DNA from: a virus
Taxonomy: Duplodnaviria; Heunggongvirae; Uroviricota; Caudoviricetes
Virus record (IMG/VR): IMGVR_UViG_3300025073_000001
DNA length: 64,000 nt
Direction: 5' to 3' (one strand)
The notes beneath the pieces are model-generated. The model searched no databases. It saw only the letters and a list, made by a program, of their open reading frames with translations, and was not told the origin of the DNA. Made by a program: the position numbers and the translations under genes. The first letter of the stretch is position 1; every line of letters begins with the position of its first letter. Shown one piece after another: positions 1 through 59,462 of the stretch.

Positions 1-136
1 TCCAATTGATCCAAAAGATAGTTTGTCCTTTATCTCCGCCATTCAATTCTTCACCTTCTGGAGTAATTATCAACCAAGTCCTATCTCGTTTAGAGTAGAA
101 ATATTTGTAACCGTGAAGTTCATGAATCTTTTCCAT
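1..136 (-). CDS. hypothetical protein, 5' part (ATG at 136, continues past window start)
   Basis: Open frame read on minus strand from ATG at 134-136 to window edge; promoter-like TAnnTTTA box just upstream (150-180). Confidence 0.35.
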   Translation of the reverse strand, partial: MEKIHELHGYKYFYSKRDRTWLIITPEGEELNGGDKGQTIFWINW

Positions 137-210
137 TGTAAAATTCGTTTGTTAAATTAATACTGTAAAGGTAAAGGTTATCTTTCAATTAATCAAGAAC
201 TTTAACATCT

Positions 211-402
211 TTATACCTTTACGAACATCGTTTCTGGATCAACCGCAAATTTAAGCATTCCAGTTTTACCAGTTTTTAAATCATCACTCGTTCCTATTTT
301 CCAATATCGACGTTGATGATCGTTCCAACAATAAATATCAGTTCGAACTGATTGTTCTGGATTGGTGTTGAGGTAGTCTTGAATTGTGATGAAATTATTC
401 AT
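211..402 (-). CDS. hypothetical protein (start trimmed to internal Met to avoid overlap)
   Basis: ORF 211..510; internal Met at 402 avoids overlap with 413..643. Confidence 0.3.
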   Translation of the reverse strand: MNNFITIQDYLNTNPEQSVRTDIYCWNDHQRRYWKIGTSDDLKTGKTGMLKFAVDPETMFVKV

Positions 403-412
403 TTTTGAAATT

Positions 413-643
413 TTAAAATAAATCGTAATCTCCAGATTTTTGTAGTTTTTGAGCAGTTGATTTTTTACAGTACAGAACGCCTGATTTTTCAAATAAAAAT
501 CCTTGATCAATCGCAGATTTTACAATTGACCAGAAACCATATTCTGGTTTATCAAGCCTTACGCACAACTCCTCAAAAGTACAAGGCTTTAACCACAAAG
601 ATGCACAAGTGTCGTTTTTTAAATCAACTATTGACATGATCAA
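413..643 (-). CDS. hypothetical protein
   Basis: ORF track; compact minus-strand gene array. Confidence 0.35.
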   Translation of the reverse strand: MIMSIVDLKNDTCASLWLKPCTFEELCVRLDKPEYGFWSIVKSAIDQGFLFEKSGVLYCKKSTAQKLQKSGDYDLF

Positions 644-1153
644 TTATTTAACTAAATATCTGTAATGAAGTCTTTGAATTGCTCCAGATGCAATGATTGT
701 AAAGGCTCTGACAGTTTTAATTCCGTCTGAAATTACAGTTTCAAAATTGACTCCAACGTTTGAACTTTTAAGTTTCAAATTATCAACGTCAAGACCTTTC
801 TGTTCAATTCTAAATGCTAACTTTTCAATGCTATCTTCATAATGAATTTCAGCATTTTTCAATTCTTTAGCAACATAATTTGCTTTTCCAAATCTACGAA
901 CGCCATCTATTTCACGTTGTAATTTGTGATAAATTTTACTATTTGCTGTGTTATGGAAATTTCTTGGAAAACACCAAGCCATGTGCCTAAATTCAGGTTC
1001 AATTTTGAAATACTTGCACCAATCTTCTTCTTGCCATTTGAATGTCTTTTCCAATCTTTCAAAATTTGAAGTTGCCCATTCCTCAGTCATCTTGAGGAAT
1101 TTATCCTTCAATTCTTCAGTTTCAACTTTAAGTTTTGCAATTAAATTTTTCAT
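644..1153 (-). CDS. hypothetical protein
   Basis: 169-aa ORF; strong Bacteroidota-type promoter 1165-1204 upstream. Confidence 0.45.
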   Translation of the reverse strand: MKNLIAKLKVETEELKDKFLKMTEEWATSNFERLEKTFKWQEEDWCKYFKIEPEFRHMAWCFPRNFHNTANSKIYHKLQREIDGVRRFGKANYVAKELKNAEIHYEDSIEKLAFRIEQKGLDVDNLKLKSSNVGVNFETVISDGIKTVRAFTIIASGAIQRLHYRYLVK

Positions 1154-1164
1154 ATTGTAATTCT

Positions 1165-1204
1165 TTCAACAAAGGTAAGTAGGTTCGAGTTAACTTCCAA
1201 ATAT
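1165..1204 (-). promoter_or_regulatory. sigma-A-like promoter (TTTGGAAGTTAAC ... TTACCTTTG)
   Basis: minus-strand TTTG-N20-TACCTTTG, 15-30 nt upstream of ATG at 1153; same module recurs across window. Confidence 0.45.
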
Positions 1205-1218
1205 TTTTCAAGAAATTT

Positions 1219-1533
1219 TTAAATCATCCCTAAGTTGACCAATTCATAGTGAACGTCCCAACTCGCTTTGTCTAAATATTCTTTCTTCTCAAGGTTAGTC
1301 TTGTATGGGATGAACCTGAGATTCCGAATATCTCCAATGATTTCAGGATCCAATCCAGAGTTGAAGCCAAAACTGACTGACAAGATGTGATCCAAGTGAT
1401 AGCGATTTCTTCCGCGTTTATCAGAATTATCTAATTGATACAAAGGTTGCTTATTGGTTATTTGAGTGACGGCTCTTCGATATTTCTTAACCGCTGAACG
1501 ATATTCTTCACGGGTCAATTCAAATTTTTGCAA
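1219..1533 (-). CDS. small HNH endonuclease-like protein
   Basis: motif RYHLDHILSVSFG ... NLRFIPYKTN (H-x-D-H ... N) typical of HNH. Confidence 0.4.
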   Translation of the reverse strand: MQKFELTREEYRSAVKKYRRAVTQITNKQPLYQLDNSDKRGRNRYHLDHILSVSFGFNSGLDPEIIGDIRNLRFIPYKTNLEKKEYLDKASWDVHYELVNLGMI

Positions 1534-1549
1534 TTAAAATCTCTTCATA

Positions 1550-1990
1550 TTATTTCTTATTGAATGATGTTAAAATACTGATCAATTTCTTAGTGTTTTC
1601 TACTGATAAATTAAAAGATTTTGATTCATCTTCGCCACTAATAGTGATAGTTTTATCATTTATCTTCGATTGAATAAAAACATCTCCGTCATCAGTGTCA
1701 ATTACCTGCCAATCCTTTTTTCCAACGTTGGAAGATAATCTTCTTAATGCATTAATTACTAAGGATTTATCTTCTATTGAAAAAACTACATCATAATTGG
1801 TTTTATTGTCAACTATAATTATTGCTTTATCATAGTCATTATAACTAATTGAAATATTTCCAATTTTTGAAATCTGCTCTTCACGAGATGGAAGATCATT
1901 GTTCCAAAACTCACTCGTATCGGGTTTTGCTTCTTTTAGATTTTTCATTTCTTGTAAAATGATTTGATTAACTAATTCTTTCAATTTCAA
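1550..1990 (-). CDS. hypothetical protein
   Basis: 146-aa ORF. Confidence 0.4.
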   Translation of the reverse strand: MKLKELVNQIILQEMKNLKEAKPDTSEFWNNDLPSREEQISKIGNISISYNDYDKAIIIVDNKTNYDVVFSIEDKSLVINALRRLSSNVGKKDWQVIDTDDGDVFIQSKINDKTITISGEDESKSFNLSVENTKKLISILTSFNKK

Positions 1991-2059
1991 TTTTTATTCT
2001 CCGTAAAGTTAAATGGATTTTATTAGAATCCAAGATTGTTAACATATTATATTTATTCA

Positions 2060-3946
2060 TTAGATATCAATAGCGCGAATATTTAAATCACGTCTAGGAT
2101 ATTTTACTTCCCAGATTGAAGGGTCCATCGGCGGATAGACAATCCCCCCTCGAGTTGCTGTTTTGATGTCATAGACATTTCCGCTGTAACCACTTGACTG
2201 ATCTATCAAATTAATAAATTCTATGTTATGGATTGATTGAACGCCTTCGACTCTATCTAATACTGAAGTTAAATTTGAAATAATTAAAGGTTCATTTATT
2301 TGACGTTTATCATTATCCATTAACTCAATGAGTTTATTCAATACGCGAAGTAAAACTTCATTTGAATTTTCATTTGGGCGAGTTACCACTTCAACGTTCA
2401 TTCCTATATTGATAATCCACGGATCCTTAATTGAAATCGCGTCCGTCATCATGCGATAATTGCGAAGGTGAGTTCTCAAGTTCTCCTTAATCGCTTCGTT
2501 ACAAACTACAAAATTTTTATTTACGTCGTAACTTAAACAGTAAAGATTAATTGAAAACGGATTAGGAATTCTGTCTTCCGACCAATGAGTCATCTGAGTG
2601 TCTTGAACAGCATAAGCCTTGCATACAGAACCATATTTCGGCGGAAGAGTAAAACACCTAAGTATCAAATCTTCCCTCGTCACCGCTCTATTCTGTGCGG
2701 CAAAGTTTGCCATCGCTTCTTCCCTAATTATTTCCAACGGTTTTCGGTTCTGACCACCAAATGCAGGGAATGGATTATTAATTGACAGTGAATCTTTTAT
2801 CGTTTGAAGTACGGTTGGATCAGTTGTATCACCAGGATCAACAATGGTTGAAGCAACGATTGCTGTAATTGTGTTTGAATTAACGTTTTCTCTCAATCCG
2901 GTTGCAACTGCATATTGAACAGTCAAGACAGTATTTTGTGGTGCTGAACCATAAGTCTTTGAATAGAGAAAGTTTTGTGGATCAATTGAAACATCGGCTG
3001 CTCTCTCAAAATAATTCAATCCTAAACCAACGTTCATTGGATTTGGAAGTATTTCTTCATCTGCTTCACTACTCATTCCACCACCAAATTGAATCTCTAA
3101 GAAATCATCTTTTCTCAATCTTGTGACAAATCTTCGTTCAGTTTGCTTATAGGATAAAATATAAGGGACTGATGATCTGTATTGACTCAGATGAGGATCA
3201 TTGTAAGGTAAGTTTCTAATTGATTGTTGAACCGTATCTTGTGCTAAGTACGGAACTTCATACCAAATATTATTGTCTGAATCAGTTACTTTAACAATTT
3301 CTGTAACATTCGGATCGTTTATCACGACCTTATCATATTGTTTTGGATCAGTGAACGAATACGTCGCTGTTTTTAATTCACCTGAAACTGCTTTGACTTT
3401 CTTTTTGAGTAAGAAATATTCAACTACGCCTGAACCGTCAACGCTATACGTTGTCACGACAGTTGGATCATAACTCGATGAGAATCTGAAATCAACTGCA
3501 TCAACTGTTCTGAATTTAATAGCATCAGTATCAGTGGTTGCGACTTGCATATTAGGTTCAAGATATAAACCATAACGAAAGTCTGGACGAGTGTCTTGAC
3601 CTTGACCAATGGAAGGGATTAACTGAAAAACTTCAAGTTCAACAGATGCTGGAGTTATTGTCTTTGCTTTGTAGCCTAATGATTGTGCAAGATTAAAAAG
3701 ATTCTTTTTTTCTTCAACGAGGTACAAAAGGCTTTCTTGAAGTTGAATATCTGTGTGAAATGACAACACGTCAGAAACAAAAGCAATCGATTCAAGCAAT
3801 GCCCCTTGTGGACTGGCTTCTGAAAAGTCATTTAATTGTTGGGGGAAGTACGTTTTTATAAAATTAATAAGTGCAATGCGGGATTCCGCAAAATCTTTAT
3901 TAACATATTTTATTTCTTTGCGCGATCTATCATTATATGCTGACAT
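2060..3946 (-). CDS. baseplate wedge protein, gp6-like (Baseplate_J family)
   Basis: 628 aa; N-terminal region (NKDFAESRIALINFIKTYFPQ...ASPQGALLESIAFVSDVLSFHTD) resembles T4 gp6/Baseplate_J; sits next to gp25-like gene as in T4-like cyanophages. Confidence 0.55.
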   Translation of the reverse strand: MSAYNDRSRKEIKYVNKDFAESRIALINFIKTYFPQQLNDFSEASPQGALLESIAFVSDVLSFHTDIQLQESLLYLVEEKKNLFNLAQSLGYKAKTITPASVELEVFQLIPSIGQGQDTRPDFRYGLYLEPNMQVATTDTDAIKFRTVDAVDFRFSSSYDPTVVTTYSVDGSGVVEYFLLKKKVKAVSGELKTATYSFTDPKQYDKVVINDPNVTEIVKVTDSDNNIWYEVPYLAQDTVQQSIRNLPYNDPHLSQYRSSVPYILSYKQTERRFVTRLRKDDFLEIQFGGGMSSEADEEILPNPMNVGLGLNYFERAADVSIDPQNFLYSKTYGSAPQNTVLTVQYAVATGLRENVNSNTITAIVASTIVDPGDTTDPTVLQTIKDSLSINNPFPAFGGQNRKPLEIIREEAMANFAAQNRAVTREDLILRCFTLPPKYGSVCKAYAVQDTQMTHWSEDRIPNPFSINLYCLSYDVNKNFVVCNEAIKENLRTHLRNYRMMTDAISIKDPWIINIGMNVEVVTRPNENSNEVLLRVLNKLIELMDNDKRQINEPLIISNLTSVLDRVEGVQSIHNIEFINLIDQSSGYSGNVYDIKTATRGGIVYPPMDPSIWEVKYPRRDLNIRAIDI

Positions 3947-4967
3947 ATTTTATTTTGGCCTCAAAATATTCTTCTTTTGAAATACGCTTATATTTTTCCT
4001 CTTTAACATATCTATCAATAATTTTAGCGGAAACTCCTAAAAATTTTGATAATTCAGAAATTGAAGAATAAACTTCTCGTGTTATTAAATTCATTATTGG
4101 TGTTGATTTTGGACAAGTCATTCCAAATGCATAATTACCACGATGCTTTCTAGTAATTTTAACCTCAGATTTCAATTGTTCAATTTCAACAAGGATTCCA
4201 TCAAATAATAACCATTTAAATTGGCTTTTGGATAAATTTAAATCCTTGACTGCGTCTGATTTGCAATTATAAATAATTCCGGATCGAGTATCATGAATTT
4301 TTTTAATTCTAGAAATTTCACCATTATAAAGTTCATGAGATTCTTTACTTTTTTTAGAAAGTTTTTCTTTAGTTTCTATAGATAAATTTTTCTTTGTTCC
4401 GAAAAATGAATTATTTTCTCCAGACCTCTTTTTGCCTCCAAAGGAAATTGCCCGTCGGGCTTCTAATGTATGAGTCTTACCAAAAAATGGATTTTTCTCT
4501 CCTTGTTGACGTTCACTGATTTCTTTTCGTTCCTTTTCTGTCTTAATTCTACCAAATGTATGATGATTTCTACCAACCATCAATGTTTTTAATTCATCCC
4601 GTTCAACTTTCCAAAATCCTTCAAAAAATTGTTTATAATCTGCCCCATGTTTTAATTTTAAAAATTTGACATGATGTTTGATTATCAAATTTGCTCCTGC
4701 AAGATTTTTTGAATAACCGGAAGTTCCAGAATCAAAACAATTTGCTAATTTTCTATGAGCACGATAATGATCTTCGATTGATAGTGGAATTAAATTATAT
4801 TCTGAATTTGAGCCTTCCATACATCTTGGTAAAATATGATGTCTATGAGTTGCTAAATTTCCATAGTTCTTTTGACTACACTCAATTAGAAAATCTTTAT
4901 ACGGTTTTAATTTTTCCAATTCATAACCTTGTTCAACAAATTCATTCAGTAAGTTTTCTCTGTTCAT
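3933..4967 (-). mobile_element. HNH homing endonuclease with NUMOD3-like repeats
   Basis: HRHHILPRCMEGSNSEYNLIPLSIEDHYRAH HNH motif; NPFFGKTHTLEARRA / NNSFFGTKKNLS repeats; overlaps gp6 start by 14 nt. Confidence 0.65.
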
Positions 4968-5112
4968 TTAAATTCCTTATAGTTTTTAATAGGAGTTTTG
5001 AAACAAAGTCATTTGCCTTCAGTGAATTTTCCTTGCAATATTTCATCACCTCATTGTGAGATTCGATTGAAACTTGGAAGGTTTTAACTTTGTCTTTTTG
5101 CTCCTGTTTCAT
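4942..5112 (-). CDS. small protein (57 aa) upstream partner of HNH gene; paralog of 7969..8139
   Basis: Translated by hand: MKQEQKDKVKTFQVSIESHNEVMKYCKENSLKANDFVSKLL...; homologous small ORF precedes the second HNH gene. Confidence 0.4.
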   Translation of the reverse strand: MKQEQKDKVKTFQVSIESHNEVMKYCKENSLKANDFVSKLLLKTIRNLNEQRKLTE

Positions 5113-5166
5113 ATTCTATAAGTATCTAAATTTTTTGTAAAAAAACTTTGGTTTATTATGATTTTA

Positions 5167-5631
5167 CTAATTAACAATTGTTGAAACTCTTCCACCTTCC
5201 TGAAAGATGGTTATAGTCTTGTTTGCAAGTGAATTTGTAACGCGAAATCGAATAACTATTTGGATAGCATTTTCGGGATCGCCACTTACAATTCCAGGTT
5301 TTGCTCTTGGCATGACCTCAATACTTTCGTTCACAATGTGAGGAAGCCAATATGCGGATTGTTGCCTAATCCTAAACTCAATTTCAGTTCTAATTGCGTC
5401 AGTGTTCTGTTCAAAAAGGAAGCCTTGAATAAAGATTCCAAAATTCGGCTGATGATATCTTTCACCTGGTTTTGTCAACAGAAGATTGATGTAATTCGTA
5501 ACTGCTTGATCCTCAGTCGTTCTTGACACATTGAAGAAACCTCCATTACTTCCAACCGAACTTCCGTTTAGTGGAAATTTTAATCCGATTACCTGAGAAT
5601 CTTCATCTTCTGGATATCTTTTATAGGCCAA
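5167..5631 (-). CDS. baseplate wedge subunit gp25-like (GPW/gp25 family)
   Basis: 154 aa; pattern FP..G.....DEDS...N...LLTKPGER...P.FG..IQ..LFE.......IRF matches T4 gp25 family. Confidence 0.6.
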   Translation of the reverse strand: MAYKRYPEDEDSQVIGLKFPLNGSSVGSNGGFFNVSRTTEDQAVTNYINLLLTKPGERYHQPNFGIFIQGFLFEQNTDAIRTEIEFRIRQQSAYWLPHIVNESIEVMPRAKPGIVSGDPENAIQIVIRFRVTNSLANKTITIFQEGGRVSTIVN

Positions 5632-5646
5632 TTTTCATCCTTACTT

Positions 5647-6240
5647 TTAACTAACTTGATCTAAGAAACTGAAATCTTCTTCATCATCGTAATTATCAGT
5701 TCCTTCAGATATTGATTCCATCCTACTAACAATTGCATTTCTTAGACTTGAATTAGTTCCTTGACCTTGAGGTTTCTGAGCTTTCTCTTCCGTCTTGAAC
5801 ATTCCTGAATAATCTCGGTTCATCGCTTCAATCACTGCTTTTGGTGCTGAAGTCAACGCTCTTCCAGTTTCAGTTGTTGGAACGTTTATTTCTTCACCAG
5901 TTTCTGTTTCAAACATTCCCATGTAACCTTGCTCTTCTTGTGGAACTGGTTCAGTTGATCTCAAAATTTCATTCAACATTGGATCGTTTGCCAAACGTCT
6001 ATTGGTATTTGGCTTTGGAGATTGATAATTTTCCCTGAACCTTTTCTGATTTTCAACCAATGAGTTTGAATCGTTGTTGTTATATTTCTTTGTTATCTGA
6101 GAAACTTTCATTCCATCAATAACAGGATTCTGGCCTGATCTGATTTCAGAAATGATTTCACGTTTCATCACTTGCAACTCTTCCTTGAGTGCAATCTTGA
6201 CTGAAAGTTTTATGAGGTCTGAAAGTTGTTTATTTGTCAT
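5647..6240 (-). CDS. hypothetical protein (low-complexity, acidic C-terminus)
   Basis: 197-aa ORF between gp5-like and gp25-like genes. Confidence 0.4.
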   Translation of the reverse strand: MTNKQLSDLIKLSVKIALKEELQVMKREIISEIRSGQNPVIDGMKVSQITKKYNNNDSNSLVENQKRFRENYQSPKPNTNRRLANDPMLNEILRSTEPVPQEEQGYMGMFETETGEEINVPTTETGRALTSAPKAVIEAMNRDYSGMFKTEEKAQKPQGQGTNSSLRNAIVSRMESISEGTDNYDDEEDFSFLDQVS

Positions 6241-6241
6241 A

Positions 6242-6715
6242 TTATTTTATTTTTTTAGTAGTTGGAATATTTGAATTTTGGTATTTTGAATTCATAAAAT
6301 CAACCATTTTAGTATCGTGTGTTGCCAATTCAAATTCAAGTTTTTGTGAAATGACAATAGCTGGAATTAAATAACCAATTATTCTAAATGCATGAACTCT
6401 ATGAATTCCATCAATAACCTCATAACCAGAACCTTTTTTAACGGCCAAAATTGGAGGAAATTTAGATGGATCCGTCTTTGTCATTCTAATTACCTTCGGA
6501 TCATTTGGATCGTCATCTGAACTATTCCATTCAGATGCTTTGATTTTATTAGGATCAAGTAAGGTTATTTTTGACTCTCGTTCCCAATCGACGTTTGCAT
6601 CATCCAATCGTTGATCTAAATCTTCAGCATATTCATCATCTTCATCAAAATAAGATTCAATCTTGACTAAGTTTTTTAGAGCAATTTCATTTAATAAAGT
6701 TCTGAGTTTTATCAT
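6242..6715 (-). CDS. ParB-like nuclease domain protein
   Basis: GYEVIDGIHRVHAFRIIG resembles ParB/Srx DGxHR motif. Confidence 0.5.
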   Translation of the reverse strand: MIKLRTLLNEIALKNLVKIESYFDEDDEYAEDLDQRLDDANVDWERESKITLLDPNKIKASEWNSSDDDPNDPKVIRMTKTDPSKFPPILAVKKGSGYEVIDGIHRVHAFRIIGYLIPAIVISQKLEFELATHDTKMVDFMNSKYQNSNIPTTKKIK

Positions 6716-7074
6716 TTTGGTAATCTGAACATTAATTCTGAAATGGTGAAATCTTTATTCCTTCCCTTGTTCAAGACAAAATCAAACTTTTTATAAAAGT
6801 CAATTAGCCTTGATTGCGAAGTTGTTCCTTGATAGTCATCTTTTACTGCCGGAGTCAATGTAATTATCTTTTGATTCCTATCTGCGTAATCGCATAATTC
6901 TTCCATCACCTTTGAACCAATTCCTTTTCCACGATCTTCTTTATTGACAATTATTGTGTCTAACTTGATTTTATCCTTGAATTCTGAAACGAAGAAAGAT
7001 TTCAGGTTATATTTTGATTCAATTGATTTTGACCAAGATTCAATATTTTCATTTAATAAAGTTCTAAGTTTCAT
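6712..7074 (-). CDS. GNAT family acetyltransferase-like protein
   Basis: RGKGIGSKVMEELCDYADRNQKIITL resembles GNAT motif A (R-x-x-G-x-G/A). Confidence 0.45.
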   Translation of the reverse strand: MKLRTLLNENIESWSKSIESKYNLKSFFVSEFKDKIKLDTIIVNKEDRGKGIGSKVMEELCDYADRNQKIITLTPAVKDDYQGTTSQSRLIDFYKKFDFVLNKGRNKDFTISELMFRLPK

Positions 7075-8000
7075 TCTTTATTTGCTCGACGTTTATTCCA
7101 AGATGATTTATTTTCTACAACTTCAAAGATTCCAATGTCAACCATTTCTTTAAACACTCCAAACAAAAGTTTTAATTGTTTCATTGCATCCGTTTGTGAA
7201 TTATAAATAATTCCAGTTCTAGTATCTTTTATGATAATCCTGTTACTTAAATGTTCTGGTGGTCTTTTCCGTGTTGCACATTTTTTACATTTTGGATTCC
7301 TTTCACAAAGTTTTTTTAAATCTGCCTGAGTTTCTTTCCTTGAATAGAACATTTTAACACCACAATCTGGACAAAATCTAAATAAATTTTTGTGCATCCC
7401 ATCAACAACTTCGTCACATCTAAAAATTCCTTCTGGTAACACGATTTCAGGTTTCCGTTTAGATCTTGCTTCTCTAATAATTTCTTTAGTTTCTTCAGAA
7501 TGTTTTTTACCATAAAACGAATTTAATTCACCAATCCGAGTTCCTTTTCTAACATCTGACATCTGCTTACATCTCTCTGGCGTAAATTTATCACCAAATT
7601 GGGCATGATTTTCACCTTTATTCAATTCGCAAACTTCCCTATGAGCAATTTCCCAAAATCCTTCCCAATGTTCCGAAATATCTTCTCCGTATCTCTTCTT
7701 CAAATGCTGTTTGACATATCCAACAATCAATTTAGCACTTCCATAATTTTTTCCTCTGAGTTTATTTCCTTTTGGAAAACATTCTGCTAAAATTAAATGG
7801 GCTTTGTAATGATCTTGGTAATTCAAAATTATTAAATTACTTTCATCATCTGTTCCACCCATAAACTTTTTTGAGTAAATATGATGTTTTTGGGTTCCTT
7901 GACCTGAATAATCCTTTTCTAAACATTCAAGTAAAAAATTGTTGTAATTGGTTAAATCATGACCTTCATAATCAGGTAGTAAGTTTTTGTTCTTGCTCAA
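7071..8000 (-). mobile_element. HNH homing endonuclease with NUMOD3-like repeats and C-terminal zinc ribbon
   Basis: QKHHIYSKKFMGGTDDESNLIILNYQDHYKAH; NHAQFGDKFTPE / NSFYGKKHSEETKE; CPDCG...CKKCATRK; paralog of 3933..4967. Confidence 0.65.
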
Positions 8001-8139
8001 ATTGACTCCTTATTGCTTTTGAAATTAATCGTTCAACAAAAAGGTTGATTTTATAGGAATTTTCATTGCAGAAGTTTTTGAGTTCCTCGTGCAGTTCAGC
8101 ATTCAAATTAATTGTCTTGACCTTTTTGTCCTGTTTCAT
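7969..8139 (-). CDS. small protein (56 aa), paralog of 4942..5112
   Basis: Hand translation MKQDKKVKTINLNAELHEELKNFCNENSYKINLFVERLISKAIR...; overlaps HNH start by about 32 nt. Confidence 0.4.
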
Positions 8140-8203
8140 ATTCAATAAGTATGTTTAATAATGTAAAAAAATGTTTTTATTTTAGTTAAGGAAAAGTTAA
8201 AGT

Positions 8204-9238
8204 TTATGGTTGTTTGAATTTGTTAAAGTCAGATGCTTGTAATTGGGTAAAATTTGCTGCCGAAGTTGCCGGACCTGAAGGGCCCGCAGGCGTGGCATAC
8301 TGACTTTGGCCGGTCGCTAATTTCACATCTTCTCCCAACCACTTTTTCAAAAAGTCCATCAGTTCATCCAAGTCAACTTTATATTTCTCAGATTGAAATA
8401 GGACTTTCTTCCCTGTCAATATCGCTTTTTCCTTTCCGATTAATAATAACATATCCTTGTTCGCATTCAGTACAACTCTATTTGAATTAATTGCTATTTG
8501 AGATTTCCCATCGAATTGTCCCAATTTCTTTGCGTCTGCATTTTTATCGAACCCTGCTTTAAAGTTCTTTAACTTTTGATTAGAAGTTAGAACCAAAGTT
8601 GATTCGTCTTTTTCAATGTCTTCAATCGTATATTTATTCGATGCTCCGCCTCCTGTTGGTTTTGCAACTCTCCAAATTGAAATTGGGTCACCATTGTTAC
8701 TGCCTTCCCACGAGGGCTTCTTCGAATATATTGACAAATCTCCTTTTATTGTTGAAGAAAATCTAAGGCTCGCTCCAAATCTTCCATTTATTATATCATC
8801 ACCTTCGAAGGGCTGAATTGGTTCTGTTTTTTTCGGAGGATCTGGAAACGTATATCCCGCTTCTTCCTTATCCGATTTTCGTTCTCCTGGGTTTCCACTT
8901 GGCGGTAAAGCACGTCGTTTCCACAATCTTGGAAATTTATGAAGTACGAGATCATCGGTTGCATTCAGTGCAGAAAAATACATGAATCCACTTCCTTTAA
9001 CCTTAGAAGTTGACCAATCATTTGTTGGAGAAATTATAACAGTGACAATTTCTCCAATCAAAGGGATTCGTGAATTCCATAGAGCAGGCCGACAAAAAAC
9101 AGTTCTCACTTGCCCTAAATTGCTTTCATGTGAACCAATTCTAACCTCTATGCTGCCGAGTGGGAGTAAATTTCCTTCAGGATCCTTCTGATCAGGCTTA
9201 AATGCATATTTTGTTTCCACAACTTCTGCTATAAACAC
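8204..9238 (-). CDS. baseplate hub / central spike gp5-like protein (OB-fold N-domain, no lysozyme domain)
   Basis: 344 aa; N-terminus MFIAEV...IGEIVTV...QPFEGDDIINGRFGASLRFS resembles gp5/VgrG N-terminal domain. Confidence 0.4.
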   Translation of the reverse strand: MFIAEVVETKYAFKPDQKDPEGNLLPLGSIEVRIGSHESNLGQVRTVFCRPALWNSRIPLIGEIVTVIISPTNDWSTSKVKGSGFMYFSALNATDDLVLHKFPRLWKRRALPPSGNPGERKSDKEEAGYTFPDPPKKTEPIQPFEGDDIINGRFGASLRFSSTIKGDLSIYSKKPSWEGSNNGDPISIWRVAKPTGGGASNKYTIEDIEKDESTLVLTSNQKLKNFKAGFDKNADAKKLGQFDGKSQIAINSNRVVLNANKDMLLLIGKEKAILTGKKVLFQSEKYKVDLDELMDFLKKWLGEDVKLATGQSQYATPAGPSGPATSAANFTQLQASDFNKFKQP

Positions 9239-10236
9239 AAGTTATCTCCTTCAACAAAGTACTGCCATTCTGAAAATCTATCAGATTTAGAATTTATTCT
9301 TTTATGAACCTTACCAACATTTATACCATGTTGGCGACCTGCCTCAGCAAGACTCTCATAAATAACTCCTTCAATTATACATTTTATCCGACTTGGTTTC
9401 GTATTTTCTACATATGGAATATCATTGACAAATATCCAATCCTTAAAAATTAAATTGGATGATTTTATTCTATAATTCACGGTATTACAAGATAAGTTCA
9501 AATGTCTTCCAGCCTCAGAAGCACTAAAATAAAAAATACCAAATATTACACATGGGTTATTTCTTGCTGCGTTTTCGCGCAACTTTTTTATTTCAGATTC
9601 AGTTTTTCCTCTACCAAAACCATTTCCCTTCTGAGCATCACTCATCCTTTGTCTTGATTCAATTGAACGTTTTTTACCAAATCCTGGGTTTCTTTCTCCC
9701 AAATTTATTTCTCGTAAATGATTTCGTTGCTCAATTGTTAATTTCATTCCTATATGTGCTATAGAAATTTTCTGTTTACTTTCTTCTGAATGCTTTCTTC
9801 CTTTAAAAGGTGGGTTGAGTCGTTTTTCTTCACGTTGCTTTTGGATAGTTTCTTCTGAATGTTTTTTCCCAGTGTTAGATATTTTTATTTTTAATCGAGT
9901 TTCTAATGATTGAATATATCCATTTTCTCCACCAGTTCTAATATTATAACATTGCGAATCTTTAATCAATTCATCAGTGACAATCATCTGTTCATGCCAA
10001 CTTGCTTCTAATCTGGTTGGGTAATGATTTATTACTTCTTTTTTAAAAGCCTCTTTTCCATATAAACGAATAGCCTCTTTTATGGCTTTTCCAGAACCAA
10101 GATAAGAATCTTTATTTGGGTGAACATTCGTTGATCGAATACCATAATAATATCGACCATTTAACAAATTAACCGTCTTATAGAAATAATTGAATAACTT
10201 TTCTTCTTTAACTTTCAATTGGTTTTCTCCTAACAA
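9229..10236 (-). mobile_element. GIY-YIG homing endonuclease (Seg/I-TevI-like) with NUMOD3 repeats
   Basis: FYFYKTVNLLNGRYYYGIRS...YLGSG GIY-YIG core; NTGKKHSEETIQK / FKGRKHSEESKQKIS repeats. Confidence 0.65.
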
Positions 10237-10239
10237 TTT

Positions 10240-10629
10240 TTATTCCCCACTTGCTGCTGCACCTGGAACAGTTTTATTTCTCATTTCCTTTGCTGCTTCA
10301 ATCAACATATTCCTCTCTTCAATTGTAATCGTTCCAGTATCTTCATGATTAAATTTATTCTTAGCATTTTTCAACAGACCTCTTTGAACAATTGCGGCCA
10401 TTTTCACCAACTGATCGTCATTCCTTATTGCCACATTTTGAAGATCACAAAGACCTGGAAGTAGAATGACAGCATCGTTCAAAGATTGAACGTATTGTCC
10501 AATATGAAGTGTTGCAGTTTCAATTGACTTTTGCTTTGCTTCAGCATTCTCGTATATTTTTTTCAGCAAGTCTTCAAACGTGATATTCTTCCCATCATCA
10601 GTTTGAAACAAGACTACTTCTTTGTTCAA
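10240..10629 (-). CDS. hypothetical protein
   Basis: 129-aa ORF. Confidence 0.4.
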   Translation of the reverse strand: MNKEVVLFQTDDGKNITFEDLLKKIYENAEAKQKSIETATLHIGQYVQSLNDAVILLPGLCDLQNVAIRNDDQLVKMAAIVQRGLLKNAKNKFNHEDTGTITIEERNMLIEAAKEMRNKTVPGAAASGE

Positions 10630-10643
10630 TTTAATTCCTCATG

Positions 10644-10880
10644 TTAGTACAATTCAATGTTATACCTATCTGAAATAGATTGTATAATTTTTTTCTTAAT
10701 TGTGTTTGGAGCATTTCTGTAATACATTTCCAACCAAGAATTGATCAATTCTTTTTCATGCTTTTGGTTTTTAGGAGATTGTTTGACAAACCATTGATCA
10801 AATTTTTTCATTATTTCAGAAATATTAAAAACTTCTTCCTTAATAATGCGTTTTACCATTTCTTTTAATGTTTCTTTCAA
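10644..10880 (-). CDS. hypothetical protein
   Basis: 78-aa ORF. Confidence 0.35.
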   Translation of the reverse strand: MKETLKEMVKRIIKEEVFNISEIMKKFDQWFVKQSPKNQKHEKELINSWLEMYYRNAPNTIKKKIIQSISDRYNIELY

Positions 10881-10896
10881 TTTAATTCCTCATTTT

Positions 10897-11172
10897 TTAT
10901 TCATCGTCATCTAAAAGATAGCCGTCAATTGTTCTTTCAGCGTGTTCAATTGCATCGTTTATTCTATCAAACCATTCTCTGTCACCTTTAAAAACATCTT
11001 TACTTTCAACGTCGTTTCCCATAACTCTATATCCAGAAGGAGGTTGATGAATGATTAAATATTTAATTCCTTCATATTCTCCTCTCTTTTCAATTGTTGC
11101 CTCAGTCAATCTGTTTTTTTTTGCAGTTTCTTCTTTGACAATCTTTTTGATAATCTGCCTTAGTTTACTCAT
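10897..11172 (-). CDS. hypothetical protein
   Basis: 91-aa ORF. Confidence 0.35.
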   Translation of the reverse strand: MSKLRQIIKKIVKEETAKKNRLTEATIEKRGEYEGIKYLIIHQPPSGYRVMGNDVESKDVFKGDREWFDRINDAIEHAERTIDGYLLDDDE

Positions 11173-11174
11173 TT

Positions 11175-11969
11175 TTATTCTCCATTTTGATAATCTGCGA
11201 ACATTTGTTCAATATAAGTATCATCGTCCTGAATTTCTTCTGGAAAATACAGAACTCTGTGCCAATACTTTGTTCCATTGACTTTAAAATCCATGTACAT
11301 TTCTCTGCAAATCGGCCTTAAAACGTTTACAACATCCGTTATTGATTGGGTTTTAACGTTGACTTGTTCTCGGATCATTATGTACAAGGCTTTCTTATTA
11401 AAGATATCAATTGAATGACTGTTTTCAAATAAGTTGAATATTGCGTCCAAAATCTGCAAATCTTTCTTCGCAAAAGGAACGACTTTTCCGTTCTTGAAGA
11501 AGAAAAAATACTCAAGATGAGACATTCCGAATTCTGCAAACTTCTTGCAAAAATCCCTCATCTCTTCGTGATATTCTTCATTGTAAGTTTCATTGTCTAA
11601 GTTTCTATGCTGGTCAATTGATTCAACTTCGCACCTGCCATAAGTATCTTCTCCAACCTTTCTCATATTGGCCCAACACCAATTTATCGCTATTCTATTG
11701 AAGTAAGAAAAACCTTTTAGTCCACGACCAATGTCAAATTTATCTAACCTTTCAACTAAGTGAACGACACACTCATGTTTTGAATCGTGGTAATTGTTTA
11801 TTCCATGATTGTGATGTTTCTTGTTATGAATAACGTTTTCTGCTAACTTATCTAATGCTGGATAAATTACCTTTGAAAACAATTTTTCTTTCTCAATGTT
11901 TGACTCAGACTTGACATATTGATCTATCGCTTCATCAACTTCTTTTCCAAAATAAGGTTTTTTTCTCAT
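11175..11969 (-). CDS. hypothetical protein (weak, unverified resemblance to T4 gp55-type late sigma factor)
   Basis: 264 aa; segment GFSYFNRIAINWCWANMRK loosely resembles gp55 region; not sufficient for assignment. Confidence 0.35.
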   Translation of the reverse strand: MRKKPYFGKEVDEAIDQYVKSESNIEKEKLFSKVIYPALDKLAENVIHNKKHHNHGINNYHDSKHECVVHLVERLDKFDIGRGLKGFSYFNRIAINWCWANMRKVGEDTYGRCEVESIDQHRNLDNETYNEEYHEEMRDFCKKFAEFGMSHLEYFFFFKNGKVVPFAKKDLQILDAIFNLFENSHSIDIFNKKALYIMIREQVNVKTQSITDVVNVLRPICREMYMDFKVNGTKYWHRVLYFPEEIQDDDTYIEQMFADYQNGE

Positions 11970-11990
11970 GTATATTTTTCCTAACTGAAC

Positions 11991-12230
11991 TTATTCATGT
12001 TCTGGTAATGGCATATCTGCAATTGATCTAGGTTCAATTCCCATATAACTCTCTTCATCATCTTCGTCTGGATGAATCCAATCAACGCAAATATTTTCTT
12101 CCGCAATTTCTAAGCATTTTCTTGCATAGAACTCAGCATATTATTTCATAGCATCTTTCAATCCTTCATAGCCTTTTATAAATACATGAGGATCAACGTG
12201 TTCTTGAATTAATTCATATATTTTATTCAT
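11991..12230 (-). pseudogene. LPEHE-family small protein with in-frame TAA (stop at 12141..12143)
   Basis: Hand translation: MNKIYELIQEHVDPHVFIKGYEGLKDAMK*YAEFYARKCLEIAEENICVDW...MPLPEHE*; homologous to four intact paralogs; stop replaces E/K codon before conserved YAE(I/F)YA. Confidence 0.5.
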
Positions 12231-25289: not shown

Positions 25290-25310
25290 ATTTAAAAATT
25301 TTATTTTAGA

Positions 25311-25382
25311 AGCCTCTGTTGGGATCGAACCAATGCTTTCCCGCGATCAAAGCGCGGTGTAATACCAATATACGAAGAGGCC
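25311..25382 (-). tRNA. tRNA-Gln (anticodon UUG)
   Basis: hand fold: acceptor GGCCTCT/AGAGGCT (G-U at 1-72), AC arm CCGCG-CTTTGAT-CGCGG, T-loop TTCGATC. Confidence 0.55.
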
Positions 25383-25446
25383 AAAATTAAATATTGATTT
25401 AGGTTCAATATCAAAGACCTACTTATTTTCTAACTAGAATAAAATG

Positions 25447-25520
25447 TCGGGAAAGTCAGATTCGAACTGACACTAACCACGGCTCCAGACCGCGTAACTT
25501 CACCAATAGATCGTTTCCCG
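25447..25520 (-). tRNA. tRNA, anticodon UGG (Pro) with unusual C33
   Basis: acceptor CGGGAAA/TTTCCCG, T-arm GTCAG-TTCGAAT-CTGAC, AC arm CGCGG-TCTGGAG-CCGTG. Confidence 0.45.
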
Positions 25521-25546
25521 AAGAATTGGATTAAAAATTAATTTGA

Positions 25547-25616
25547 GGTTCCGATTGGACTTAAACCAATATAAATGCTTTTGCAGAGCATCACCTTATC
25601 AATCGGACACGGAACC
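25547..25616 (-). tRNA. tRNA-like, probably Cys (GCA) on minus strand; palindromic, strand ambiguous
   Basis: acceptor GGTTCCG/CGGAACC; AC arm ATGCT-CTGCAAA-AGCAT; T-arm ATTGG-TTTAAGT-CCAAT; weak D-arm lacking GG. Confidence 0.35.
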
Positions 25617-25857
25617 ATTTTGGATTAAAAAGAAACGAACAAAACTCTGATGAAACTATGAATAAGTATCTAACCCCAAAGAATTTTCAGTCTCGACTAA
25701 CAGAAAATTTCGTTTCTTATAAAATTAAAATTAATTAGTCAGGATTCGATACCTGAACGATTCATCTCACTGGTTTTGACCGAACCTTTGCAGAATCAAC
25801 TTTAGGTCTGTTGCGTCTATCTTTCGCCACTAACTAATTTTTTCTGAAATTTATTTT

Positions 25858-25891
25858 ACAAAGATACCTGATTAATTTCAATCTACCAAAT
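25858..25891 (-). promoter_or_regulatory. sigma-A-like promoter (TTTGGTAGATTG...GTATCTTTG)
   Basis: TTTG-N20-TAnnTTTG on minus strand. Confidence 0.35.
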
Positions 25892-25908
25892 TTATTTTAA
25901 ATCAAATT

Positions 25909-26178
25909 TCATATTGAGCATTGTTTATATTCATTGGCCGTTTCGCGAATTAAATGCGCCATATTTTCATTAGGCTTTTCAGCAACCCATTTATACCGAC
26001 CATTTAACTTTTCAACGATACCGATTCCTCGAAGAACCGTAGCGACTGACCAATCAATATTCCAAGCAGAACAATGTTTTTGAAGATTGGTAACTTTATT
26101 TTTTTGGCATTTTGTTCTGATCGTTTTCAAAAAATTGGTTAATTCTGGAATTGTTGCGTTTGAAGATCTCGATCTCAT
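25909..26178 (-). CDS. hypothetical protein
   Basis: 89-aa ORF within tRNA island. Confidence 0.35.
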   Translation of the reverse strand: MRSRSSNATIPELTNFLKTIRTKCQKNKVTNLQKHCSAWNIDWSVATVLRGIGIVEKLNGRYKWVAEKPNENMAHLIRETANEYKQCSI

Positions 26179-26203
26179 AATTTTGAAAATTTATTTTAGT
26201 TTG

Positions 26204-26277
26204 AGCCGGGTGTTGGATTTGAACCAACGATCAATTGTTTGTAATACAATCTGCGTAGACCGCTTGCATAACCCGGC
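26204..26277 (-). tRNA. tRNA-Val (anticodon UAC)
   Basis: acceptor GCCGGGT/ACCCGGC, T-arm GTTGG-TTCAAAT-CCAAC, AC arm ATTGT-ATTACAA-ACAAT. Confidence 0.55.
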
Positions 26278-26491
26278 TTAAAAAATCAGAACATCATCTT
26301 TTTTCGATTTACAAATTCGTTGATTTAAAGTTGCTGTTGATGTTCTTTTGGCTCAGGGAGGGCAAAAATAAATTTTAATCAATAACCAAGCCCTTTCCCC
26401 TGAAAGTTGTGATGTGCTGTTCGGTTATTTATTCAGATTTGCATTTTTTAGTTTACAAGTGTTCTACCAACTGAACTATAAAAGGGATTCA

Positions 26492-27148: not shown

Positions 27149-27162
27149 TTTATTTTATTTTT

Positions 27163-27244: not shown

Positions 27245-27285
27245 CGTTTGGAACCATCCTGCTACGCTTTCAAGTTCCTTTTACT

Positions 27286-27642: not shown

Positions 27643-27645
27643 ATT

Positions 27646-56900: not shown

Positions 56901-58153
56901 TCTTCCAAACTTATAGGTTCATTTTTACAAACAATTAAATCATTTTCATAGTGATTCATCGCGTTGATTGTTATCTTCAAGTTACCTAGTTCAAATTGCC
57001 CTATTTCACCTGATTGAGTGATGATTTCTGATAGATTTTGAATCGTTATAAAGTCGTTTTGGTTGAAAGTATGTCTATCAATTTCAACAACTATTTCTGG
57101 TTCAGAATCTCCCCATTCGGATATTACTTTCTTTTCTAAATCGAATTTAGTATTCGGTTGCTCATCTCTAATATAAGCATAGATAAATTGATTGTCTAAA
57201 TTCTTACTGGCTTCAAAATATGCAGTGCAATGATCGCACCAAGGTTCAAGGTGATATAATAGTGCAGAATCACAATTCTTAACTTGGAATCCAACGTTAT
57301 ATTGATGACTTGGTGTAATTGGATGATGCCATTTATCGTGTTGTGGAACTGATTTCCATTTACGAATAAAGTTTCTGAGTGATTTTGATTGTTGGCCATC
57401 CCATTCAGTTGAATTTTGACCAAAGGAAGTTAATGTCGGATTCCACCGTGAACCTGCACAACTTCTATGGTAGACGAATGATTTCCACGATTGAATGAAC
57501 TCACAACCATTGAACAAAAGTCTATTCCATAAATCATCATCTTCCCTTGAAGTTGGGCGAAATAAAGAATCACACCCTCCAATCGAAAGATATTCTTCAG
57601 TTTCCATCAAATATGGAGCAAAAATTCCCTTGGTAAAATTGACAGTCAATGCTCTGTATTTCTCATCAACATAATTTTGAAGTCTTTCTTCATCCAAATC
57701 TTTTGGATCATTTGGTAGCCAATCAAGACTAATTTTACATGGTTCAGGAGGATGAATTGAAGGTTCGCATCTAGTAGCAGAAATAACTCGTTTAGGTTCC
57801 ATCAATTCTAATATTCCATCCAACGAACCTTTTAACCAAACCATATCGGCATGAGCAAGAACGAATAATTTCGTTTTGACTCTTTCAACCAATGAATTGA
57901 AAAGTATAACATGACCTAATCGTTCTGGTCCAGAATTGACAATAAAATCAAATCGTTCGTCTTTTTGACGAATCTCTTCCATCCAAAACTTACTTCCATC
58001 AATTGTACTAAAATCATCAGCACACAGAATAAATGGTTCATTTCCTATATTTCTACGAATAGAATCATATGCAAATTTTAGAAAGTGAAGATTTTCTCTT
58101 GAAGGGATTATGAATGTGACATCTGAATAATTATATTTTTTAATCATTTTCAA
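56897..58153 (-). CDS. family 2 glycosyltransferase
   Basis: N-terminal VTFIIPSRENLHFLKFAYDSIRRN...FILCADD typical of GT2. Confidence 0.6.
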   Translation of the reverse strand: MKMIKKYNYSDVTFIIPSRENLHFLKFAYDSIRRNIGNEPFILCADDFSTIDGSKFWMEEIRQKDERFDFIVNSGPERLGHVILFNSLVERVKTKLFVLAHADMVWLKGSLDGILELMEPKRVISATRCEPSIHPPEPCKISLDWLPNDPKDLDEERLQNYVDEKYRALTVNFTKGIFAPYLMETEEYLSIGGCDSLFRPTSREDDDLWNRLLFNGCEFIQSWKSFVYHRSCAGSRWNPTLTSFGQNSTEWDGQQSKSLRNFIRKWKSVPQHDKWHHPITPSHQYNVGFQVKNCDSALLYHLEPWCDHCTAYFEASKNLDNQFIYAYIRDEQPNTKFDLEKKVISEWGDSEPEIVVEIDRHTFNQNDFITIQNLSEIITQSGEIGQFELGNLKITINAMNHYENDLIVCKNEPISLED

Positions 58154-59000
58154 AGATCGTTATTGTTCCATCATATTTTATTCTAATAAATTTACATTTT
58201 AAGAATTTCATAATTTCACATTGCCTATTAATGTCTTTTTCTTTCAATTTTCCATTTTTATGAAAATGTTTAATTTCATCAAACTCAATCACAACGTTGT
58301 TTTCTTCATCATATCCATCAACCCAATAACCTAATTCTTTAATATGAAATTCTCCGCCATTTTCAGCGTGTTGAAAATTATATTCATTTTCTAATCCATA
58401 TTGTTCAATTATAGTTATTGATTTTGGATTATACATCGGAGAATATTGGCCGATTAATAATTCGCGCTGTCTTTGTGCAGCCAAACGCATTTTCAATAAA
58501 ACACCATCTTGAGTAACCGGATTATTTTCGGTCATTCTTTTTGATATTTTTTCTTTATTTTCAGGTTTAAATGATGGATTATTTTCCTTAAAGTATATTC
58601 GTTTTTGTTCTCTAGATTCTTCCGATATGAATTTTGGCATTTCATGCATCATCTTCATATGACAACTTTTACATTTTCTATTTTCGGAAATAGCTCTATT
58701 AACATTTGCTATTGACATTTCTGTTTTCTTATTGCAACATGGATACTGATAAATTAAAGTTTGGTGATAAATTTTGCCTTTTTTACTTGTCGGTTTACTA
58801 TATCTTACACACGAATGACATAAATTTGTACGTTTCTGAGATATTCCCTTACATTTTGGATTATTGCTGGGATTTGAGCAGATTACGGTTTTATTTTTAC
58901 ATTCTTCACAAATAGTATTATAATTACACGCTTTAGTAAAAATCCATTTATGTTTATAATTTATATTTTCAGCGCATTCTGGACATTTTCTTTCAAACAT
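58140..59000 (-). mobile_element. possible homing-endonuclease-like protein: N-terminal zinc fingers, NUMOD3-like repeat, Vsr/PD-(D/E)xK-like C-terminus
   Basis: CPEC...CEEC...CHSC; NNPSFKPENKEKISKRMTENNPV; GYWVDGYDEENNVVIEFDE. Confidence 0.35.
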
Positions 59001-59152
59001 TGATTTAATTTTCCTTCTTCAATTTTAGTGAAATAATTTTGAAGAAGTGTCTGAACCAACTCATTTATTTTCAATCCTTGTTCAGCACAATGAACCTTTA
59101 GAGTTTTATGTAAATCTAAATCAATTTGAATTGGCGTTTGTTTCTTCTTCAT
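58961..59152 (-). CDS. ribbon-helix-helix (CopG/Arc-like) DNA-binding protein
   Basis: IQIDLDLHKTLKVHCAEQGLKINELVQTLL resembles RHH beta-strand + helices. Confidence 0.4.
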   Translation of the reverse strand: MKKKQTPIQIDLDLHKTLKVHCAEQGLKINELVQTLLQNYFTKIEEGKLNQCLKENVQNALKI

Positions 59153-59210
59153 ATCACTAATAATTATCCAAAATAAAATTAAAAACCTATATTCTTATAG
59201 TTTTATAGTG

Positions 59211-59462
59211 TTAAACTTTATTTAAAATCCAAGTTCCACGATTGCATTGTTTAATCTTCCCTTCTTTTTGAAGCTTATTCAGGAAATAATACGTTCCAGA
59301 AACTGCCCCTCTTCCGGGTTGAACGAATGCTCTGCCTTTGAAAAATTCATCATCCTTGTCATATTGCTCTTTGTAAACAACGTTTCTGGCAATCAATCTC
59401 GTTGAAACTGGATATGATTTACCTTCTAGGTAATTGAGTATTTTCTGGTAATTAGGATTCAT
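59211..59462 (-). CDS. hypothetical protein
   Basis: 83-aa ORF. Confidence 0.35.
   Translation of the reverse strand: MNPNYQKILNYLEGKSYPVSTRLIARNVVYKEQYDKDDEFFKGRAFVQPGRGAVSGTYYFLNKLQKEGKIKQCNRGTWILNKV

Follow-up and report, generated by a model that had tools for sequence, protein, structure and literature searches.

The window analysed here is the whole of a 64,000-nt stretch of a Caudoviricetes phage (IMG/VR record IMGVR_UViG_3300025073_000001). The phage is uncultured and myovirus-like, and its genome is probably ~229 kb, because the longest contig of the exact-sequence cluster (P0002) of one of its proteins, RHH_A, measures 229,053 bp. Three two-gene cassettes were located in the window, each with a small gene for a putative ribbon-helix-helix (RHH) protein that overlaps a downstream gene for a homing endonuclease or a homing-endonuclease-like protein. 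Cassettes A and B lie among baseplate genes. Cassette C, at 58140-59152 (-), had been overlooked in an earlier sequence-only reading and was found by tblastn with the small proteins. From sequence comparison and by analogy with known systems, the RHH protein appears rather likely to be an autoregulatory repressor within a portable expression module for homing endonucleases. The parts of the three cassettes and their flanks are as follows.

2060..3946, minus strand: gp6-like baseplate wedge gene, flank of cassette A (phrog_219 and phrog_6)
3933..4967, minus strand: HNH_A, 344-aa free-standing HNH homing endonuclease with NUMOD3, I-TevI-like and NUMOD1 DNA-binding parts
4942..5112, minus strand: RHH_A, 56-aa predicted ribbon-helix-helix protein, type A (homology to RHH_B and structure model)
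5113..5166, minus strand: cassette A control region, from the gp25 stop to the RHH_A ATG
5167..5631, minus strand: gp25-like baseplate wedge gene, flank of cassette A (Pfam GPW_gp25, 3e-10)
7071..8000, minus strand: HNH_B, 309-aa free-standing HNH homing endonuclease with NUMOD3, a C-terminal CxxC zinc finger and a TTG start
7972..8139, minus strand: RHH_B, 55-aa predicted ribbon-helix-helix protein, type B (PHROG Arc-like repressor matches)
8140..8203, minus strand: cassette B control region, from the gp5-like stop to the RHH_B ATG
8204..9238, minus strand: gp5-like baseplate hub gene, flank of cassette B (conserved gene order in relatives)
58140..59000, minus strand: NUC_C, 286-aa homing-endonuclease-like protein with CxxC zinc fingers, NUMOD3-like helices and a C-terminal PD-(D/E)XK domain
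58961..59152, minus strand: RHH_C, 63-aa predicted ribbon-helix-helix protein, type C (Pfam RHH_10, phrog_582)
59153..59214, minus strand: cassette C control region, conserved in L060, L063 and L066 (L numbers denote loci of related phages)

Cassettes A and B had been described in the sequence-only reading as one duplicated unit, a small gene plus an HNH endonuclease gene, placed on both sides of a gp25/ParB/GNAT block. The kinship of their parts was borne out by alignment. HNH_A and HNH_B are paralogs (33% identity over 290 aa, E 1e-37, including the HH...N...DH..H block), the HHI...NLI.L..DHY(R/K)AH motifs and NUMOD3 repeats were found in both, and the small upstream genes are homologous (26 of 56 residues identical, 46%, E 9e-13); both protein pairs thus align significantly, and a lack of similarity between the cassettes is excluded. 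Nucleotide comparison of A with B gave a 16-nt stretch common to both directly before the small-gene ATGs, ATACTTAT[A/T]GAATATG, which has no other occurrence in the 64-kb window. The small-gene/nuclease overlaps are present and measure 26 nt (A) and 29 nt (B), where 26-32 nt had been claimed, and 40 nt in C. The small B gene ends at 7972 rather than at 7969, and its start is placed at 8139 or 8145 by the ORF list. The 3' end of HNH_A overlaps the gp6 start by 14 nt. Among the neighbours, the gp6 and gp5-like identities hold by PHROG baseplate matches or synteny, and gp25 and GNAT are supported, whereas ParB is a weak PHROG match only (E 8.5e-4).

Profile searches placed both HNH proteins among homing endonucleases. 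HNH_A matches Pfam NUMOD3 (9e-12), phrog_655 homing endonuclease (9e-17) and phrog_12434; its NUMOD1 score was 22.9 bits against a cut-off of 22.8, and its score for the I-TevI DNA-binding domain (24.8) was below the cut-off of 27. HNH_B matches Pfam HNH (22.6 bits, cut-off 21.4), NUMOD3 (2e-6) and phrog_655 (4e-18), and begins with TTG where its relatives begin with ATG. Each combines an HNH catalytic motif with a modular DNA-binding region, two features of free-standing HNH homing endonucleases.

The claim that A and B are copies made inside this genome did not survive. A recent duplication is ruled out by the low identities between them (46% for RHH, 33% for HNH) and by closer relatives in other phages, RHH_A being 88% identical to the L073 RHH protein, and RHH_B 82% to that of L078 and 78% to that of L056 (non-overlapping codons). 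From these sequence comparisons, A and B are probably two diverged lineages of one cassette family, acquired independently.

The nuclease of cassette C has no Pfam or PHROG match. Among its homologs (n = 838), the C-terminal domain is constant and stands behind zinc-finger and NUMOD3 regions that vary; the core fold is that of restriction-endonuclease-like proteins. Candidate catalytic residues were compared across 51 homologs: D228, D231 and H245 never vary, and E239 and E242 hardly do. A search of the NUC_C profile against PDB sequences gave no match to any solved structure. The nearest known type is the I-Bth0305I/Vsr-like PD-(D/E)XK homing endonucleases, from which NUC_C differs in that it has no intron setting and no sequence match to solved structures. 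The accompanying RHH_C is 88-92% identical to the RHH proteins of L060, L063 and L066.

RHH genes of 52-63 aa are a fixed feature across cassettes. An RHH profile was searched over 5.8 billion clusters and returned 36 homologs; in the 50%-identity library, 13 RHH representatives were obtained at E <= 1e-10. The AlphaFold monomer model built from the 36 homologs (pLDDT 89) has an extended N-terminus followed by helices at 16-28 and 33-55, which is the strand-helix-helix arrangement (~45 residues) of the Arc/CopG/MetJ superfamily. When the model was compared with the PDB by Foldseek, nearly all of the 50 matches listed were RHH proteins (MazE6, TacA, Arc, CopG, ORF56; TM 0.6-0.78), with individual E-values short of significance, as a domain of this size would lead one to expect. 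Profile matches point the same way for RHH_B (phrog_582, 3e-6; phrog_3180, Arc-like repressor, 1e-5) and for RHH_C (Pfam RHH_10, 27.0 bits, exactly the cut-off of 27; phrog_582 Arc-like repressor, 1.6e-6). RHH_A is tied to the PHROG Arc-like families via its homology to RHH_B only, and RHH_A and RHH_B both score below the Pfam RHH_7 cut-off. On this sequence and model evidence the small proteins are assigned to the ribbon-helix-helix (Arc/CopG-like) fold. They would be candidates for dimerisation and for operator binding through paired N-terminal strands, with AT-rich palindromes in the cassettes as candidate operators. Substitutions among the RHH homologs fall 219/144/334 on the three codon positions, and this third-position bias shows that the small ORFs are coding.

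In the context sample of 21 RHH loci, a nuclease ORF directly follows the RHH gene in 20, the exception (L075) being a distant RHH homolog; in 19 of the 20 cassettes the two genes overlap by 17-44 nt. That the small ORFs might be chance neighbours, either ordinary regulators or non-coding, was considered, since small AT-rich ORFs are common and the Pfam scores of RHH_A and RHH_B lie below the cut-offs. This explanation is highly improbable in view of the immediate pairing with a nuclease in 20/21 contexts, the joint absence of both genes at empty sites, the third-position bias and the confident RHH model.

The partners were classed by profile or fold as HNH/phrog_655 (n = 10), GIY-YIG/phrog_314 (n = 4) and phrog_5104 type (n = 3), with one each of LAGLIDADG_1 (25.7 bits, cut-off 23.1), PD-(D/E)XK and DUF7487 type. 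The RHH module thus stands in front of members of at least five nuclease families. A type-A RHH (72-88% identical to RHH_A) precedes HNH or LAGLIDADG, and a type-B RHH precedes HNH or GIY-YIG. Type-C RHH proteins, 88-92% identical, precede PD-(D/E)XK in the window and the phrog_5104 type in L060, L063 and L066, although the site is alike in all four, upstream of a glycosyltransferase gene. RHH type and nuclease class thus assort independently. The RHH protein is also far more conserved than its partner, both between cassette B and L078 (RHH 82%, nuclease 49%) and between cassette A and L073 (RHH 88%, nuclease 38%); in a separate comparison, HNH_B was 58.5% identical to the L078 nuclease, which occupies the same site. 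At L079, two cassettes flank gp5 (3001-3976 and 5106-6168), the upstream one with a type-B RHH and GIY-YIG and the downstream one with a fourth RHH type and HNH.

This free assortment bears on two further explanations. The first is a toxin-antitoxin-like arrangement, in which the RHH protein would bind and neutralise the nuclease and so shield the phage or host genome until the RHH protein decays. In its favour, the cassettes are laid out like classic type II systems, with a small RHH gene in front that overlaps a larger nuclease gene, and RHH antitoxins (MazE6, TacA, CopA(SO) and AtaR) are among the best fold matches. The cassettes share with the RHH-antitoxin systems (MazE6, TacA, AtaR, ParD) gene order, an upstream and overlapping small gene, the RHH fold and likely autoregulation. 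On the other hand, a single RHH type (72-92% identical) is paired with unrelated folds (HNH/LAGLIDADG, HNH/GIY-YIG, PD-(D/E)XK/phrog_5104 type), so direct inhibition of all of them by one small protein is unlikely. At 52-63 aa, moreover, the proteins have no separate toxin-binding extension: the second helix reaches the C-terminus, and the short tail is the least conserved part of the protein. The specific partner and the toxin-binding extension of type II antitoxins are accordingly lacking, the 'toxins' of the cassettes have homing endonuclease architecture instead, and the arrangement is considered unlikely.

The second explanation is a targeting or accessory subunit, with the RHH protein directing or stimulating the nuclease at its homing site or shielding the cassette-bearing allele. 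Sequence-specific DNA binding is a property of RHH proteins, and the two genes are inherited together in every case. Against this, the same RHH type is found at different insertion sites (for type A three kinds: gp25/gp6, downstream of gp5, and an unrelated site in L055), the nucleases checked have DNA-binding modules of their own (NUMOD3, NUMOD1, I-TevI domain, zinc fingers), and the DNA linked to the RHH type is the cassette's upstream region and not the flanking target genes. A role of this kind is doubtful, with little probability assigned to it. Of the two functions proposed for the small partner in the sequence-only reading, a regulator fits the RHH fold and a targeting factor is unlikely, as a given RHH type is combined with unrelated nucleases, and this at different sites.

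The conserved unit is a module of ~200 bp, consisting of ~55-65 bp of conserved non-coding DNA, the RHH ORF, and the AAGGA and nuclease start codon embedded in it. Its limits are sharp. In cassette C, window 59214-59003 has 87-90% nucleotide identity to L060, L063 and L066; identity falls to 69-76% in the flanking genes, no alignment is possible between the nuclease ORFs, and the type-C match breaks off 3 nt away from the nuclease start. In cassette B, the segment 8205-8005 shows 82.6% identity to L056 3936-4135, compared with ~67% in the gp5 flank; in cassette A, the segment 5148-4959 shows 76.7% identity to L055, the two loci having no other homology around the module. Wherever the partner nucleases are unrelated (three comparisons), the nucleotide match ends at a distance of 3-8 nt from that start. 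Silent changes in the RHH genes of types B and C affect 13-31% of conserved codons, compared with 37-54% in the flanks.

Within the upstream 70 nt, 49-52 positions are identical among type-A cassettes and 60/70 between B and L056. The control region of cassette A contains the near-palindrome TTTTTTTACAAAAAA and, directly before the ATG, ATACTTATAGAAT; that of cassette C contains CTATAAGAATATAG, whose counterpart in L060/L063 is the perfect palindrome CTATAAATTTATAG. The candidate operators read TTTTTT(A/T)(T/C)AAAAAA in type A and CTATAA(A/G)(T/A)(T/A)TATAG in type C. The upstream DNA is conserved within each RHH type, and its motifs are confined to the cassettes within the window, by which a general phage promoter was rejected as the explanation of the upstream motif.

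At the other end of the module, AAGGA at 4974-4978 (A) and AAGGAG at 8006-8011 (B) precede the nuclease starts, and in most cassettes AAGGA(G) stands 7-8 nt ahead of the nuclease start; within the RHH frame it falls on codons for I-R in types A and B and for E-G in type C. For comparison, AAGGA is found before 12% of window ORFs and 2.8% of random positions. Relative to the RHH ORF, the nuclease is read in the +1 frame in 18/19 cassettes. A frameshift fusion of RHH protein and nuclease was rejected on the grounds that ATG is the start codon of most nuclease ORFs (TTG in three) and that AAGGA precedes most of them; fused RHH-nuclease homologs were absent among the long matches.

A sharp edge at the nuclease start would also be produced if the module were a docking platform, that is, a shared homology arm or target behind which nuclease ORFs are exchanged, its conservation coming from recombination. 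The modules 87-90% identical before non-homologous nucleases at the glycosyltransferase-upstream site, with homology ending at the nuclease start, fit such a platform. So do the silent divergence of the module in types B and C, at about half that of the flanks, and the homologs of one GIY-YIG gene of the window (GIY1), which carry a type-B RHH in L056, L079 and L082 and none in the window. However, no nuclease-free RHH gene was seen in the core family (20/21 contexts), so that an 'empty platform' has not been met with, and amino-acid conservation and third-position bias show selection on the RHH protein. As a full account the docking platform is improbable, if a little less so than the toxin-antitoxin and targeting explanations. 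It is compatible with regulation, and both may coexist.

The positions of the cassettes were compared among relatives, whose backbone order is p264-p129-gp5-(p197)-gp25-gp6. Among 52 IMG/VR relatives surveyed, 47 loci with both genes were counted, and gp25 and gp6 are <200 nt apart in 45 of them; the two ORFs were adjacent (-8 to +25 nt) in 7/8 cassette-free loci checked. In the nearest deposited relatives, Microcystis phage Mel-JY01 (gp6 48% identity) and Flavobacterium phage immuto (gp6 38%), gp6 comes directly after gp25. Window 1-12000 has no nucleotide match among GenBank phages. The RHH and HNH unit is found in L004 (between gp25 and gp6) and in L073 (directly downstream of gp25), and downstream of gp5, as in cassette B, in L058, L078 and L080. 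In insert-free relatives both genes are missing together from the same positions. The cassettes are insertions.

Traces of movement were also found in the sequences. The 5' edge of the L004 cassette, which sits at the gp25/gp6 site, reads ATTCAAACAACCATAA, identical to the last codons and stop of gp5 in the window (8204-8219); this 16-mer is otherwise missing from the window and from the other 75 loci. As the L004 cassette carries the 3' end of gp5, it would have moved between the gp5 and gp25/gp6 sites together with a piece of flank, and the fragment is read as an indirect footprint of that movement. The earlier proposal of a mobile two-component homing unit stands as far as a mobile two-gene unit is concerned, by presence and absence and by footprints; homing itself we infer.

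The cassette of L066 has a piece of an L060-type glycosyltransferase allele (59 aa, 3771-3950) on its upstream side and a complete allele of the window type on its downstream side. By its sequence this looks like a footprint as well, left when a cassette with its flank replaced part of another allele. A search for empty glycosyltransferase sites returned a single distant relative without a cassette, L083. The heptamer (C/G)TTTAAC recurs at the 5' edges of cassettes of types B and C and of L071, frequently overlapping the stop codon of the gene before them (window 8190-8204 and 59205-59214; L056, L060, L066, L071); it may mark a recombination junction or belong to a target or a promoter. In the eighth of the cassette-free loci checked, L005, gp25 and gp6 are separated by a 267-nt spacer; a decayed cassette was considered there and dropped, no significant similarity being found.

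Taken as an autoregulatory repressor, the RHH protein would work as follows. A dimer or tetramer would bind the conserved stretch upstream of its own gene and repress transcription of the RHH-nuclease operon, and the nuclease would thereby be kept low or be expressed briefly. Translation of the nuclease would start at the ribosome-binding site inside the RHH frame and would hence be tied to RHH translation. The nuclease would be the engine of mobility, cutting cassette-free alleles of co-infecting relatives, with repair copying the cassette in. Control would be exerted on the cassette's own DNA and not on the nuclease protein, so that the same ~200-bp module could serve any nuclease. Binding of the upstream region and repression are here inferred by elimination and analogy: if nuclease folds and insertion sites differ and the RHH protein does not, its own flanking DNA is what it would have to act on. 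A broader proposal, put forward tentatively and held to be somewhat short of an even chance, is that the module is a portable 'driver' into which any homing endonuclease ORF plugs at its start codon, which circulates and recombines faster than the backbone and which gives all major families one shared chassis for regulation and recombination.

Several results weigh against the repressor interpretation. Two window GIY-YIG homing endonuclease genes, 9229-10236 (-) and 30211-31080 (-), have no RHH gene, and an RHH gene is therefore not essential for such genes. All 21 loci of the context sample come from a single phage clade. In type A, the difference in silent changes is small (38-49% compared with 52-56% in the flanks). 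Sigma-70-like and terminator-like matches near the cassettes were at chance level, no commoner than in shuffled sequence, and the sole sigma-70-like match (TTTACA-17-TAGAAT) ends right at the RHH ATG, too close for RHH translation. As to the coupling route, no significant RNA structure was obtained at the nuclease and RHH starts (z -1.5 to +1.0). The palindromes, which are AT-rich, may belong to a promoter instead of being operators, and co-variation of RHH type with upstream DNA is also expected from simple linkage.

Homing endonucleases are usually seen as single-gene selfish elements, limited by host signals or by the enzyme itself. The free-standing homing endonuclease genes of T4-like phages are seg and mob. 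In these, as in I-TevI, nuclease domains are joined to NUMOD3, helix-turn-helix or zinc-finger modules as they are here, and the seg and mob genes likewise lie between conserved essential genes, are present or absent among relatives, and need their nuclease expression limited. I-TevI represses its own promoter (PMC10448857). In T4, control is by RNA structure, promoter timing or the DNA-binding domain of the endonuclease, whereas here a separate RHH gene and conserved upstream DNA are present, in a module that, unlike the T4 systems, is common to nucleases of different families. T4-style RNA hairpins hiding the RHH or nuclease start were set aside, as no significant structure was found.

A small DNA-binding gene upstream of, or overlapping, the endonuclease gene, co-transcribed with it and autoregulated, is also known from the C proteins of restriction-modification systems, which set the timing and level of the nuclease. 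C proteins are helix-turn-helix proteins, whereas the cassette protein is of the RHH type by its model; no methyltransferase was found among the genes near the cassettes, and no C-box was identified.

The Arc (RHH) protein of the IS605 family was recently shown to bind and repress the promoter of the TnpB-encoding element that carries it (bioRxiv 10.64898/2026.09.24.754181). It is likewise a tiny RHH protein in a selfish element that has a nuclease for element maintenance. The cassettes differ from IS605 elements in that they have no TnpA, TnpB, IS ends or guide RNA, their partners are protein-guided and reside in a lytic-type phage, and the ribosome-binding site of their nuclease ORF is provided by the RHH gene overlapping it. 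Among the neighbours of the cassettes, which are phage structural genes and protein-guided endonucleases, there were no transposase or TnpB matches, and the cassettes are not placed in the IS605 family. The same study mentions arc genes beside homing endonuclease genes, which it did not pursue, and beside acetyltransferases.

Beyond that passing remark (bioRxiv 10.64898/2026.09.24.754181), no RHH-homing-endonuclease cassettes in phages were found described in the literature. Both homing endonucleases of the free-standing kind and RHH autoregulators are well known, and what is new is a variant that combines them in a fixed, exchangeable way. The composite mobile element of the broader 'driver' proposal would be one not described for phage homing endonucleases. 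RHH homologs were absent from 50,697 GenBank phage records and from GTDB genomes in one pattern scan; 4 RHH loci were found in IMG/VR and 5 in the metagenome scan. If the repressor interpretation is true, an exchangeable repressor module would be a general way to keep selfish nucleases tolerable in a virus, in parallel with Arc control of IS605/TnpB and C-protein control of restriction enzymes. Fast nuclease turnover at fixed sites would be accounted for by an exchange of nuclease genes behind a conserved module. In practical terms, the module could offer a compact, self-limiting nuclease expression cassette. Genes of 52-63 aa are easily overlooked, and spotting them would mark adjoining unannotated ORFs, such as NUC_C, as homing endonucleases.

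The interval between gp5 and gp25 (window 5647-6240 and 6242-6715, minus strand) differs among relatives, with p197 conserved. The ParB-like and GNAT genes are present in some relatives only, with a DnaJ-like gene and other small genes elsewhere, and the interval is a hot spot for insertions. The GNAT gene (120 aa, window 6712-7074, minus strand) follows HNH_B with an ATGA overlap, and the order in L078 is likewise RHH-HNH-GNAT. The RHH model resembles the antitoxins of GNAT toxins (TacA, AtaR, KacA). RHH_B and GNAT as a TacA/TacT-like pair was considered and rejected, since the GNAT protein has no toxin-type match and most RHH cassettes have no GNAT gene.

A 104-aa stand-alone phrog_5104 domain is encoded at window 1219-1533 (-), with a motif, HLDHI...G...NL...N, that looks like HNH by eye. 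The RHH-linked nucleases in L060, L063 and L066 carry this domain at their C-terminus. It has no Pfam or PDB sequence match, and its resemblance to HNH ('DHI..P...G...NL...N') was recognised by eye only. The 104-aa ORF is conserved downstream of gp6 in L003, L004 and L005 and may, from its sequence, be a domesticated or remnant nuclease.

GIY1 (9229-10236) lies between p129 and gp5, and its same-site homologs in L056, L079 and L082 have the type-B RHH module. Between p129 and gp5 of L005, a 52-aa ORF (5219-5377) keeps the GIY-YIG N-terminus (FYKTTNLVNGKYYYGIR) and, judged by that sequence, is a decayed remnant at the site held by GIY1 in the window. The second GIY-YIG gene (30211-31080) adjoins tRNA-Arg (30130-30203) and lies inside a cluster of 12 tRNA genes at window 25309-34871 (-), which comprises Gln, Val, Thr, Arg (two), Asn, Gly, Leu (two), His, Ser and Glu.

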